This document shows positions 4,959 through 34,624 of a stretch of 64,000 nucleotides of DNA, piece after piece. The notes under the pieces are model-generated. The model worked only from the letters and a program-made list of their open reading frames with translations, had not been told where the DNA came from and did not search any database. The DNA is from a virus, in the IMG/VR virus record IMGVR_UViG_3300021964_007043; one strand, 5' to 3'. The stretch's first letter is position 1. Each line of letters opens with the position of its first letter. The position numbers were made by a program, and so were the translations under genes.

Positions 4959-5000
4959 CTCATACTCCAACTATTGTATTTATCAGAATCAAATACTTAC

Positions 5001-8262: not shown

Positions 8263-8850
8263 TTATGTTCCTGGTTGTAATACAAAGTTTAATACTATTC
8301 TTTTATCAGCTTTAAACGGGGGTGTGCTTGCATGAAATCTATTTGATTTAAACATTACAGCTCTTCCTTTCTTAGGACTAATGCCTGCTATAGTATATAA
8401 GTCTTTGTGTCCTTCGTCAAGTGTTTTGTGAAATATTTTAGTATCACCGTCTGCATTGTTTACATAATAAACCATGCTAATATAATCGTCGCTTGGAGAA
8501 TCAACATGAGGAATATTATAGTTATCTAAGTTTGATCTACCTGGCATTAAAAGATTTGCTTTTACACGTACAATATTTTTAATACTCATTTGCATTTCTT
8601 TTTCTAAAAACCAAACTACTGGTTGTATTAGAGAAGCATACGGAGATATTGGTTCATTTTCTTCAATAAAAACATGTTGCATTTGGGGAGAATCAAAAAT
8701 ATTTTTGTCATCGGGATCTACAGCAACATCTCCTGAAGCACTTGGATACCAATACCAATGTATTTTAGAAAGTTCAGCTTCTAAAAGATCTGCATAGGAT
8801 TTAGGTAAAAGATTTGGTAATATACGATATTCATCTCTTGGATCTTCCAT
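8263..8850 (-). CDS. 2OG-Fe(II) oxygenase superfamily protein
   Basis: HVD...FHAS facial triad, YYVNNADGDT and PKKGRAVMF strands, terminal RIVLNF Arg. Confidence 0.85.
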   Translation of the reverse strand: MEDPRDEYRILPNLLPKSYADLLEAELSKIHWYWYPSASGDVAVDPDDKNIFDSPQMQHVFIEENEPISPYASLIQPVVWFLEKEMQMSIKNIVRVKANLLMPGRSNLDNYNIPHVDSPSDDYISMVYYVNNADGDTKIFHKTLDEGHKDLYTIAGISPKKGRAVMFKSNRFHASTPPFKADKRIVLNFVLQPGT

Positions 8851-8884
8851 GCAAATATTTATATACGCACTTTAATCCAGCCAT

Positions 8885-8916
8885 AAAAAAAGGCTTCTAG
8901 AAATGAAGCCTTTTTT
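8885..8916. terminator. Intrinsic terminator (bidirectional)
   Basis: aaaaaaaggcttc-tagaaat-gaagcctttttt; inverted repeat flanked by A and T tracts, just after the 8924 stop. Confidence 0.85.
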
Positions 8917-17986: not shown

Positions 17987-18028
17987 TTATTGCTCCGAAA
18001 TCATTGTTGTAAGTATTTATCGTATTCA

Positions 18029-28028: not shown

Positions 28029-28051
28029 ATAGTATTTATCGTTTTTGGAGA

Positions 28052-31491: not shown

Positions 31492-32475
31492 TTAAAATAA
31501 CATTCCAAAAAGGAGTGCTCTATTCTTACTTACTAGTTCGTCTCTAGTTTCATTCTCATTTACGAAATATATACCAGTTTTTCCAGTATATTCATCTGAC
31601 ACATATATTTTTGCGCCGTCTGTTGGTGCTAAAGGCTCAACTAAAAAGTCGCCTGCACCCGGAGTACTGTTTATATGTAGTGTATCATCTATTCTAACTG
31701 ACCCTGTTCCCCAAGCTCTAAGTAGCAAGTCGTCTGAATCAGTTGTTATAGTTTCTAATGTAGTACCAGTGATTCTTAAATCTTTAAAGTTCCACTCGTC
31801 TTCATAAACTGTAGATATTACATTACCGTCAATACTAAATGTAATATTACTTAATGCAGCACCACTACCGTCTGGAGATGGTTCGCTATCTGCAACAACA
31901 ATACTTGAAGGACTAGTAACACCGTCACCGATCTGTTTCAAGAAAACTGTAGCAAATGCTGTACTAATAGCATCGTCTACATATTTTTTGTTAGTAATAT
32001 CGTCGTCATCAGTAACTTGGGTTTCATAGTTAACTGTACCACTTACTGTAATAACTCCAGTACCACTGTTTATTAAATGTAAATCACTACCAGCAGTGTT
32101 AATATGGTTTGTTCTAATGCCACTTACTGCACCGCTATCTAATCTAAATGCAAACAGACCTCCTGTATTAACAGGATCTGTAAGATTATCGTCATAGACC
32201 ATAAATGCATTTAGTAAAGTGCCACGGTCAATTTCAATACCAGAACTGTTTGACGGATCTGTAATACCGGCGCCAACTTCTCCTTTATTAAGTACAATAA
32301 TATTGTCCTCAATAGTCATATTAGTTGTATTAACTGTAGTAGTTTCTCCTAATACAGTTAAATCGCCGGTTATTACAACTGTTCCTTCTTCTGTGCCGGT
32401 GTCGAGAGTTATTTGACCACCATTTTGTACTGTGATCTTATAATCTCCGCCATCAACTCTAAAGAACTTTGACAT
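31492..32475 (-). CDS. Fibre-like structural protein, 327 aa
   Basis: VITGDLTVLGETTTVNTTNMTIEDNIIVLN fibre motif; hydrophobic C-terminus ALLFGMLF. Confidence 0.7.
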   Translation of the reverse strand: MSKFFRVDGGDYKITVQNGGQITLDTGTEEGTVVITGDLTVLGETTTVNTTNMTIEDNIIVLNKGEVGAGITDPSNSSGIEIDRGTLLNAFMVYDDNLTDPVNTGGLFAFRLDSGAVSGIRTNHINTAGSDLHLINSGTGVITVSGTVNYETQVTDDDDITNKKYVDDAISTAFATVFLKQIGDGVTSPSSIVVADSEPSPDGSGAALSNITFSIDGNVISTVYEDEWNFKDLRITGTTLETITTDSDDLLLRAWGTGSVRIDDTLHINSTPGAGDFLVEPLAPTDGAKIYVSDEYTGKTGIYFVNENETRDELVSKNRALLFGMLF

Positions 32476-32484
32476 GTGTTATCC

Positions 32485-32847
32485 TTAGATTGCTGTTAGA
32501 CGTAATACTGTGTCAGTTGAATCGTCTTCTAGTTCCCATGTATAACGAGTGTTATCAAAGTCGACTGCTGTTCTATTGAATAGTTTTTGTACTACTTTGC
32601 GTCCGCCGCCTGTATCCATTGCTTCAATAACCATTTCGCCTGCTGCGATAGATGCTGTTGCTTTGTTAACTAAACGACATACTGCTGTTGCAGTACCTGC
32701 ATTGTTAGATACTGTGAACTTGTTAGTTCCTCTTTGGTCTACAATGTATGCTTTTTCATCGATACCACCATCTACATATGCACGAACTGTAATGTTAGTG
32801 CCGTCTGCTGGATCTCCGAAGTTTCTTTTATTTACTGGACGTCCCAT
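32485..32847 (-). CDS. Hypothetical late protein, 120 aa
   Basis: ORF with AGGAGA RBS downstream of a structured leader. Confidence 0.8.
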   Translation of the reverse strand: MGRPVNKRNFGDPADGTNITVRAYVDGGIDEKAYIVDQRGTNKFTVSNNAGTATAVCRLVNKATASIAAGEMVIEAMDTGGGRKVVQKLFNRTAVDFDNTRYTWELEDDSTDTVLRLTAI

Positions 32848-32930
32848 TTGTTTCTCCTATTTTGACGTTCTAAGTCTACGCGGTTGAACGATCTTCCGCA
32901 TAAGTCCTCTTCATCGAGGCTCTTTCTCGA
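32848..32930 (-). promoter_or_regulatory. Structured 5' leader with possible pseudoknot
   Basis: Hairpins TCGAG/CTCGA (32914-30) and TATGCGG/CCGCGTA (32877-902); loop CGTTC is complementary to downstream GAACG (32866-70). Confidence 0.45.
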
Positions 32931-32954
32931 CAATAGTATTTATCAAATAAAGAA

Positions 32955-32984
32955 AAAGCCCGACACAGTTAAGCATCGGGCTTT
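32955..32984 (-). terminator. Intrinsic terminator
   Basis: AAAGCCCGA...TCGGGCTTT followed by TTCTTT on the minus strand. Confidence 0.8.
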
Positions 32985-32989
32985 ATAAA

Positions 32990-33200
32990 ATAAGGGTGGG
33001 TGAAGGACTTGGGTTTACCTCCAACTAAGCGTCCAGATACCGTTTCATCTATCGCCTAGAACCTCAGTTCTGCTTAGTATCGCAGTTTGCGTACTGCTTG
33101 TCTCCAAACTCTACGCCGGGCACTACCCCTAACCAAGTGCGCTTATCTCCTCTAGAGTGGAAATTATTAGCGCCAACCCATATAACAACGTCTTGTTATA
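32990..33200 (-). ncRNA. Candidate stand-alone structured ncRNA (~200 nt), family unassigned
   Basis: No ORF in the track; bounded by a sigma70-like promoter and a terminator; several helices (ACTAAGC/GCTTAGT, GCAGT/ACTGC, GCACT/AGTGC, AGAAC/GTTCT, TGGGT/ACCCA). Confidence 0.6.
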
Positions 33201-33205
33201 TTATT

Positions 33206-33233
33206 AATATAACATCATACAAATAAAAGTCAA
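33206..33233 (-). promoter_or_regulatory. Sigma70-like promoter for the candidate ncRNA
   Basis: TTGACT-N16-TATATT with a TGn extended -10. Confidence 0.55.
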
Positions 33234-33316
33234 CCTTTTTTTAATAAAAAGTTAATCTTTTTTTCACGATATTGTTTGATTAGTCTTTTGAAGTACCAAA
33301 ACGTTAATCGATCCAT
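33230..33316 (-). CDS. 28-aa basic micropeptide MDRLTFWYFKRLIKQYREKKINFLLKKG (below the ORF-track cutoff)
   Basis: AGGAGAAG RBS 4 nt before the ATG; lies directly downstream of the riboswitch-like element. Confidence 0.6.
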   Translation of the reverse strand: MDRLTFWYFKRLIKQYREKKINFLLKKG

Positions 33317-33345
33317 TACACTTCTCCTAGTTAAAGGTTAAAGTG

Positions 33346-33387
33346 CGTTCCTTCGCAGTATGCTACTTCCGTCCCGTAGGATGAACG
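33346..33387 (-). ncRNA. Glutamine-I (glnA motif) riboswitch aptamer
   Basis: CGTTC-A-[TCC TACG GGA]-CGGAAGTA-[GCA TAC TGC]-GAAG-GAACG reproduces the P1/P2/E-loop/P3 architecture and conserved core (CGUU..A..CGGAAGUA..GAAG..AACG) of the glnA aptamer. Confidence 0.8.
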
Positions 33388-33404
33388 TAAAAATATTTAG
33401 TCAT

Positions 33405-33431
33405 AAAAAAAGGCCCCGTAGGGCCTTTTTT
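33405..33431 (-). terminator. Intrinsic terminator after the major capsid gene
   Basis: AAAAAAGGCCC-TACG-GGGCCTTTTTTT. Confidence 0.9.
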
Positions 33432-33451
33432 CGTTTTAGTTAAGTTATAAC

Positions 33452-34624
33452 TTAGCTGAAGCTTAGGTTACCACTGTTAACTTCTACCTTTTCTAGGTAG
33501 TCAGCTGCGTTACCTAGAGATGAAGCAGTATTTGATAGCTCAACATATCCATAACGTGTCATGAATGAAACTGTTGGCTCAAATGTGCCTGGATCTAGGA
33601 CAACACCTGAAGACATTAGTGGGATATATGGGCAGTAGAACGCTGCTGCGTCTGACTCGCTTGAACCCTTATAACCAACTAGTACGTCATCATCTGCTGC
33701 ATATGTGTTAACGTAAACTTTCATTGCGTTGTTCAATGTACCAACCATTTTAGTGTTTGTTGGTGCTTCGAATGTACCTTCAGTTGTACGTGCAAATGCT
33801 GATGTTGTTGCTGACTGTAGAACAGTTAGGATAGCTGGAGATACAACTGCCCAGTTACCTGCACCGCGTCTTGTACGCTGTGCAATACGGTTTGCTGCTC
33901 TGTTGACTAGAACTGCAAGTGCTGCATGCTCGTCACCAACAAAAGTAGCTGTACCGCTAACTGCTGCTTGGTTGAATGTATCTGTACCAGTACCAGCAAG
34001 AGTACTTAGAGATGCTAGGACCTCTTGGTCGATTTCAGCAGTAATCTCTTGAGCAAGTGCTGCCATGATTTCTGCTTCAACATCGATACCGTGCTGTGAC
34101 TGTGCATCCTGTGCTGATTCAAATGTCCAGCGAGCTGATAGCTTTCTGGATTTTGCTTCTACAGTTTGCTTCAAGATTTGAATGCTTAGTCTGTTTCCAG
34201 CTTCGCCTTCTAGTGCTGCTGTTGCATCAGCTTTTGCAGTTGTTGCATTACCTGAATATGCTTCAGCAATCTTGAATGGTGAAAGTGCTTCTTCACCAGC
34301 TACTGCACCAGCTGCACCTGTACCTGCTGTGTCGCTGTAGCGAACACGTAGAGTATGGATTTGACCAACTGGACCAGTCATTGGTTGTACACCAACAAGT
34401 TCATTTGCAATGACTGTTGGCATAACACGTCTGATCACTGGAAGGATCACACGATTTAGTGTTGCGACGTTACCGGCGGATGTAGCACCAGCTGTAGCAG
34501 TCTCTGACAAATACTGTCTTGTATTTTCTAGAGTAGCAGCCATAACTGACTTCTTGTTGCCTTGAAGGCCTTCAAGTAGTGCGCTCTTTGTATCCTGCCA
34601 GCGACTTTCTAGTAGTTCTGACAT
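33452..34624 (-). CDS. gp23: Major capsid protein (T4 gp23-like)
   Basis: GVQPMTGPVGQIHTLR, KSRKLSARWTFESAQD, EITAEIDQE, FYCPYIPL and FMTRYG gp23 motifs. Confidence 0.95.
   Translation of the reverse strand: MSELLESRWQDTKSALLEGLQGNKKSVMAATLENTRQYLSETATAGATSAGNVATLNRVILPVIRRVMPTVIANELVGVQPMTGPVGQIHTLRVRYSDTAGTGAAGAVAGEEALSPFKIAEAYSGNATTAKADATAALEGEAGNRLSIQILKQTVEAKSRKLSARWTFESAQDAQSQHGIDVEAEIMAALAQEITAEIDQEVLASLSTLAGTGTDTFNQAAVSGTATFVGDEHAALAVLVNRAANRIAQRTRRGAGNWAVVSPAILTVLQSATTSAFARTTEGTFEAPTNTKMVGTLNNAMKVYVNTYAADDDVLVGYKGSSESDAAAFYCPYIPLMSSGVVLDPGTFEPTVSFMTRYGYVELSNTASSLGNAADYLEKVEVNSGNLSFS

Follow-up and report, generated by a model that had tools for sequence, protein, structure and literature searches.

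The window, that is, the whole 64,000-nucleotide stretch of DNA that was analysed, belongs to IMG/VR virus record IMGVR_UViG_3300021964_007043, and its sequence indicates that the source genome is that of an uncultured estuarine jumbo myovirus. Its capsid protein shares 65-70% identity with the capsid proteins of four jumbo phages, Vibrio 2.275.O, Pseudomonas PA5oct, Serratia BF, and Sinorhizobium Phosso. The genome is not that of a cyanophage. IMG/VR contigs of relatives, 114-186 kb long, have completeness ratings of 32-53%, from which a genome size of approximately 350 kb is estimated. Near-identical DNA was found mainly in estuary metagenome runs, and estuary and marine runs carry the DNA; its sequence words make up small shares of the RNA runs, which were not used for naming a habitat. 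All genes of the region are located on one strand and run in the same direction. The features of the locus, in the order of transcription, are as follows.

34624-33452, minus strand: major capsid gene (Pfam Gp23, E 2.4e-100; PHROG major head protein)
33431-33406, minus strand: terminator of the capsid gene
33389-33342, minus strand: glutamine riboswitch (RF01739, 49.7 bits against a gathering score of 35)
33316-33230, minus strand: 28-aa basic ORF (MDRLTFWYFKRL...), after the glutamine riboswitch and with a Shine-Dalgarno sequence upstream
33206..33233, minus strand: sigma-70-type promoter, TTGACT, a 16-nt spacer ending in TGt (TG extension), and TATATT
32992..33198, minus strand: manA RNA core, 207 nt, with a 5' hairpin P0, a closing helix P1 (UGGGU/ACCCA), and arms P2-P8 inside P1
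33121..33126, minus strand: loop L4 (GUAGUG), complementary to loop L6
33101..33104, minus strand: GNRA tetraloop GAGA, capping arm P5
33075..33080, minus strand: loop L6 (AUACUA), the partner of L4 in a candidate kissing-loop pair
33007..33017, minus strand: loop L8 (UAAACCCAAGU), of which ACC can pair with GGU of the P7 terminal loop (33039-33046)
32955..32984, minus strand: intrinsic terminator, a 12-pair hairpin with 6 G-C pairs followed by a T run, starting 7 nt past the RNA core
32936..32944, minus strand: GATAAATAC box, similar to the T4 late promoter TATAAATA and probably the promoter that serves the next gene
32845..32920, minus strand: freshwater-2-related leader (RF02980) of the downstream gene, 76 nt (41.2 bits, below the gathering score of 49.9)
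32485..32847, minus strand: ORF120, 120 aa, a conserved post-capsid gene with no Pfam or PHROG match

The glutamine riboswitch is situated directly downstream of the capsid terminator and is followed by the Shine-Dalgarno sequence and the 28-aa ORF, the TGA stop of which overlaps the -35 box of the manA promoter. This riboswitch and ORF module is also present in loci L013, L018, L021, L040, L004, L047, and L145, with or without manA (L-numbered loci are IMG/VR contigs, except L208, which is Methylophilales phage Melnitz-1). When positions 32400-33500 were compared by blastn with 50,697 phage records, no manA relative was found, and the sole match to the region among cultured phages was with the Methylophilales Melnitz phages, over 75 nt of the glutamine-riboswitch module. 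In Melnitz-1 (L208, 701-773; MZ577095.1) the identity over these 75 nt is 84%, and the matching segment overlaps an annotated 453-nt tmRNA (SsrA) on the opposite strand. No terminator was found between the glutamine-riboswitch and small-ORF unit and the manA promoter, so that read-through from this unit into the manA RNA is possible.

The RNA at this locus was first flagged in a sequence-only reading, which could not assign it to any known family. The Rfam scan provides the assignment. The manA model (RF01745) matches window positions 32992-33198 on the minus strand with 89.3 bits against a gathering score of 55.2 (E 1.7e-21), running end to end over model positions 1-192 of 192, and membership of the manA family is practically certain. 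Standard pairs are formed in the window sequence at 51 of the 55 Rfam manA pairs. In the comparison with dinucleotide shuffles suggested when the RNA was flagged, the window folds clearly better than its controls, the minimum free energy of 32955-33200 being -89.1 kcal/mol compared with -66.3 ± 4.4 kcal/mol for 200 shuffles (z = -5.2). On the minus strand, no ORF of 30 aa or more is present between promoter and terminator, which bears out the original description of about 200 nt without an ORF. A coding reading was rejected on this ground and because the 42-aa ORF with a TTG start on the plus strand (33098-33226) spans covarying helices.

Weinberg et al. 2010 (PMC2864571) introduced the manA motif as a probable cis-regulatory element, possibly a riboswitch, distributed among marine metagenomes, T4-like cyanophages, and two gamma-proteobacteria. 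Its role was still termed unverified in a 2023 cyanophage paper (PMC9964418), and no manA ligand or function was found in the literature since 2010. The window RNA has in common with the motif a full-length match, a multi-arm fold, conserved boxes, and a sigma-70 promoter whose end, like that in cyanophage P-SSM2, immediately precedes the 5' hairpin. The genome that carries it, in contrast, belongs to a jumbo myovirus resembling PA5oct and Vibrio 2.275.O and to neither a T4-like cyanophage nor a gamma-proteobacterium. The family is known; the host group is new, and the arrangement is free-standing.

For the search for homologs, IMG/VR offers at least 80 loci in which the capsid is 81-95% identical to that of the window. 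Rfam itself calls manA in the post-capsid slot of L040, L014, L026 (identical to L033), L072, and L047. A covariance model, R1, was built from the Rfam-called relatives using the Rfam structure, and when applied to 84 sources it identified 26 copies in the post-capsid slot, of which 24 are distinct, with exactly one in the window. Approximately 15 of the 26 copies are of a diverged manA-like form that scores below the Rfam gathering threshold, and Rfam therefore under-counts the family. The diverged post-capsid subfamily (L004, L013, L016, L055, L003, L012, L008, L035, L025, L002, L006, L023, and L027) has common boxes such as GAUAGUGCAAGGAA and GUAGUGGCA and aligns over its full length to the manA-based model. 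In the 24 distinct homologs, 87.3% of cells pair, compared with 58.1% for shuffled partners and 36-49% for partners slid by 1-3 columns, where the alignment is fitted to the model and so favors the structure, and the slid controls share that same alignment. Compensatory change on both sides was observed at 45 of 50 pairs, and the covariation score was 0.650, compared with 0.19 for shuffled partners and no more than 0.13 for slid ones. The family fold, for which covariation among relatives had been proposed as a check, covaries strongly. No match was given by the Rfam manA model on S-PM2, Syn9, S-RSM4, and Vibrio phage 2.275.O. Model R1 gave none on capsid regions of 7 kb from 2.275.O, PA5oct, and Phosso, or on five long contigs of relatives (32-53% complete), and its absence from these says little.

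The helices drawn from the single sequence were retained in part. TGGGT/ACCCA (P1), GCGCT/AGCGC (P2), TAGATG/TATCTG (inner P7), and TGGAGG/CCTTCA (P8) are all in the conserved fold. GCACT/AGTGC, GCAGT/ACTGC, and the three-way junction closed by ACTAAGC/GCTTAGT with its AGAAC/GTTCT helix compete with the family fold and were discarded. Among the 24 distinct homologs, 58.0% of the cells of these four helices pair compared with 55.8% shuffled, and their covariation of 0.183 against 0.167 shuffled is chance-like. A role of the 3' single-stranded tail as antisense to other phage messages was also rejected, its reverse complement occurring nowhere else in the window.

The RNA is flanked by conserved signals for its own transcription. 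The promoter proposed at the outset, TTGACT-16-TATATT, is present at 33233-33206 (minus strand) with a TG extension, and its -10 box ends 7 nt upstream of the 5' hairpin of the RNA. It is located at the same place in 24 of the 24 copies examined, with 9-11 of 12 consensus positions matched and its end 0-19 nt upstream of the model match; among random 63-nt windows drawn from these loci, no more than about 1% reach a 10/12 match. Promoter-like hexamers in this AT-rich region are in no excess (55 found, 53.4 expected), and the match in the window alone would not show a promoter; it is credible because the position is conserved in every homolog. The intrinsic terminator was likewise recovered where it had been predicted, at 32984-32955 (minus strand). 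Downstream sequence is available for 22 copies, of which 19 have a terminator that begins 4-11 nt past the RNA core, the stems being non-homologous, with about eight or more unrelated sequences across copies.

Several relatives show how this cassette varies. The order in L027 is promoter, RNA, 5 nt, tRNA-Gly(UCC), and terminator, and L023 is alike; in these loci (L027 4148-4482, L023 4280-4573) the manA-like RNA and the tRNA-Gly(UCC) are 5-7 nt apart in one promoter-to-terminator unit. In L002, a late-type box directly follows the RNA instead of a terminator. The cassette is regarded as an insertion because the shortest form of the slot, approximately 175-190 nt, holds only an ATAAATA box and the leader. 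The earlier view of a stand-alone promoter-RNA-terminator unit within the structural-gene region, not the leader of the next gene, is supported by the conserved flanks, and we consider with good confidence that the locus is a free-standing RNA gene.

The gene downstream carries signals of its own. The T4 late promoter consensus is TATAAATA. The similar GATAAATAC occurs four times in the window compared with 0.77 expected (4976-4984, 18013-18021, 28032-28040, and 32936-32944, all on the minus strand), each time on the coding strand, within a gap that precedes an ORF. GATAAATAC is a candidate late promoter, with the distribution in this sequence that a late promoter would show. In nearly all relatives, the box is approximately 95-105 nt upstream of the ORF120 start. 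The freshwater-2-type leader begins just past this late-promoter-like box. The same leader scores above the freshwater-2 gathering score in approximately 35 relatives (51-77 bits), for example L013 4702-4784 and L007 4273-4357, and a literature search on freshwater-2 returned unrelated papers only. This metagenome-only motif apparently serves, in the jumbo-phage clade, as the 5' leader of a post-capsid gene that is conserved; here it belongs to ORF120 and is outside the manA unit. ORF120 has 33-37% identity with hypothetical proteins from the jumbo phages Atu_ph07 and Phosso. The gene past the cassette has a signal of its own in every case, usually the GATAAATAC box with the freshwater-2-type leader; L072 has a TATAAATA box there, followed by a different gene, and L080 a second sigma-70 promoter. 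A manA RNA in the 5' UTR directly upstream of a coding gene, the cis-regulatory position given when the motif was first described, is not the situation here, where a terminator, a promoter-like box, and another leader intervene. Such 5'-UTR placement is a contextual trait and does not define the manA RNA structure.

When IMG/VR was scanned for a signature and the model was then applied, 44 matches were obtained, of which 26 are on new contigs, and three arrangements can be distinguished. The first is post-capsid with promoter and terminator, as in the window. The second, on six contigs, has a perfect 12/12 promoter without a terminator and resembles that of P-SSM2, in which manA (181.6 bits) starts 8 nt past a 12/12 promoter, in the same position as the window promoter, and ends 16 nt upstream of the start codon of a purine-synthesis gene. 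Some manA members (P-SSM2 and the six IMG/VR contigs) do sit as leaders, whereas the window RNA ends in its own terminator and does not abut a start codon. In L100 (9321-9583, minus strand) and L159 (4516-4781, plus strand), a permuted alpha-type tmRNA gene is found approximately 2.3 kb from a terminator-less manA with a perfect promoter. The third arrangement, without a promoter, is inside tRNA arrays (L127, L128, L133, L143, and L165), and the Rfam model itself calls manA at its gathering score in L127, L128, L133, and L143. In L133, one tRNA ends 20 nt before manA and the next starts 8 nt after. With such a placement, like that of a tRNA gene, manA is most simply explained as a stable processed product. 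The link between manA and tRNA is positional: in relatives, the RNA shares a transcript with a tRNA gene or lies among several.

Within the large tRNA array of L165 (8620-9447, minus strand), a GOLLD RNA (RF02032, 197 bits), a manA-like RNA (8697-8908), and a tRNA (8620-8691) adjoin one another. GOLLD and ROOL form RNA-only multimers. They are, like manA, phage-encoded, ornate, and located beside or within tRNA arrays; in contrast, they are much larger (about 400-800 nt), unrelated in sequence, and placed in separate Rfam families.

Metatranscriptome data give a hint that the manA RNA is expressed. Contigs of three salt-marsh runs cover approximately 32990-33200 at a summed k-mer depth of 150-800, a depth derived from contigs only, which cannot show ends, strand, or level and may include DNA carry-over. 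A 119-nt contig (33004-33122) is identical to the window. The adjoining covered bins reach at most 17 downstream and at most 41 upstream, and the capsid gene is heavily covered. Stretches that no RNA contig covers, namely ORF120 at 32400-32784 and, in run X20, the RNA itself, were left out as evidence.

The structures now solved for other members of the family suggest what the RNA may do. By cryo-EM, several manA RNAs were observed to form decamers, a mixture of octamers and decamers, or a T=1 cage with 60 subunits and a size of approximately 430 Å (Ren et al. 2026, bioRxiv 10.64898/2026.07.01.735769). These oligomers are built from pentamers through the intermolecular kissing loops L5-L7', L8-L9' or L3-L8', and an L6-P6' GNRA-receptor contact also holds the pentamers. 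They were obtained in vitro from other members, refolded in 10 mM MgCl2, and the preprint gives no in-vivo or genomic data on manA (bioRxiv 10.64898/2026.07.01.735769).

Comparable elements can be observed in the window RNA. Loops L4 and L6 are complementary over 4-5 bp (UAGU(G)/(U)ACUA), and at the same site the L026 group has GGUA/UACC, while UGGU/ACCA is found in L006 as well as in P-SSM2 and the Rfam consensus. Arm P5 is capped by GAGA, GAAA, or GCGA in every copy, and its stem covaries. The L7-L8 contact is only 3 bp (GGU/ACC) in the subgroup of the window. In the manA-like subgroup, the L7-L8 pairing extends over 4-7 bp, and 11 of 13 copies show a full 4-bp match, in which six different 4-mers are represented, compared with 15% for swapped partners. 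For either loop pair, the complementarity in sequence would be the same for intramolecular and intermolecular contacts. From the order of helices, L4-L6 of the window may be equated with L5-L7' of the preprint. The cage- and decamer-forming RNAs of Ren et al. 2026 thus have the family, the GNRA-capped arm, and the complementary, covarying loop pairs in common with the window RNA, whereas one of the two loop contacts is only 3 bp in the subgroup of the window. Judged by this analogy, self-assembly of the manA RNA in vivo is a serious possibility that falls somewhat short of an even chance.

The best explanation of the locus, and a likely one, is that it is a manA-family RNA gene of an estuarine jumbo myovirus of which the RNA itself is the product. 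Host RNA polymerase with sigma-70 would start at approximately 33199, and the sigma-70 type of the promoter suggests expression early in infection. The core of approximately 207 nt would fold into the manA architecture, a 5' hairpin followed by P1 closing the multi-arm core, and the intrinsic terminator at 32984-32955 would release a transcript of approximately 250 nt. The RNA would be the product, presumably acting in trans, and the neighbouring gene, with its own late-type promoter box and leader, would not be controlled by it. By analogy with the solved manA structures, copies of the RNA would probably bind one another to form pentamer-based closed oligomers, a decamer or cage, with the loop pairs L4-L6 and L7-L8 and the GNRA-capped arm as contacts.

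The strongest alternative is that of a riboswitch or cis-regulatory leader, in which the manA core is the aptamer, the terminator at 32984-32955 is the expression platform, and a ligand gates read-through from the early promoter into ORF120 and the structural genes. This is the class assigned by Rfam and PMC2864571 (cis-regulatory, probable riboswitch), and it fits the terminator that closely follows the RNA in 19 of 22 copies, the common direction of all genes in the region, and the P-SSM2-type copies that abut a start codon. The terminator stems, however, are unrelated between copies and have no overlap with P1. There is no conserved antiterminator, since pairing between the terminator arms and the 3' part of the RNA is hardly stronger than for shuffled arms (mean z -0.6 and -0.9; in the window itself, z = -0.6 and -1.2). 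Moreover, the RNA and the terminator are both intact in the minimum free energy structure of the full transcript in 18 of 19 cassettes, a tRNA is situated between them in L023 and L027, and some copies in tRNA arrays have no downstream ORF to control. Together with the promoter box and leader of the downstream gene and the outcome of the literature search, in which no ligand published since 2010 was found, these observations make a switch improbable.

A processive antitermination RNA would be one that, while nascent, binds its own polymerase and carries it past the terminator into the late region. A promoter, a structured RNA at +1, and a strong terminator are the layout of HK022 put sites, and the epsC motif of the same 2010 survey is an antiterminator (EAR). 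The likeness to HK022 put RNA and EAR is in the order of promoter, 5' folded RNA, and terminator; there is no similarity of sequence or fold, and manA also occurs without a terminator and inside tRNA arrays, copies that do not fit such a role. The downstream gene with its own promoter box argues in the same direction, as does, as a weak hint, the cover of the RNA by RNA-library contigs with low adjacent downstream bins. Antitermination is accordingly rated as still less probable than a switch.

The tRNA mimic or decoy of the sequence-only reading, in which the last hairpin stacked on P1 imitates the T-arm and acceptor for tRNA enzymes or host anticodon nucleases, agrees with the slot and transcript common with tRNA-Gly in L023 and L027, the tRNA arrays of other phages, and the cuts that RNase P and RNase Z probably make beside manA there, but is very improbable, since ARAGORN finds no tRNA or tmRNA in the window, a permissive Rfam scan (E up to 1) of 32800-33500 gives no tRNA-clan match, the last hairpin is a 5-bp stem with an 11-nt loop that is engaged in a covarying loop-loop contact in relatives, and a 3' CCA or discriminator-like end is lacking.

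A free-standing RNA gene, the preferred reading, can be extended to a broader proposal. During infection, a giant phage would make an RNA of approximately 210 nt from a host-type promoter, which would self-assemble into protein-free decamers or 60-mer cages through loop-loop contacts, and the whole manA family would consist of free-standing structural RNAs, processed in the manner of tRNA and swapped among the small-RNA slots of phages. In this full form, the proposal is tentative and rather unlikely.

manA has been an orphan riboswitch candidate since 2010, and the present locus and its relatives supply the genomic context that is absent from the cage preprint. In a clade of estuarine and freshwater jumbo phages, manA is a portable promoter-RNA-terminator cassette, sometimes co-transcribed with a tRNA. 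The cassette form, the co-transcription with tRNA, and the embedding in tRNA arrays argue for a stable, trans-acting RNA over a switch. The Rfam manA model misses a sizeable diverged subfamily. Furthermore, the relatives offer natural compensatory loop variants with which it may be tested whether assembly matters.
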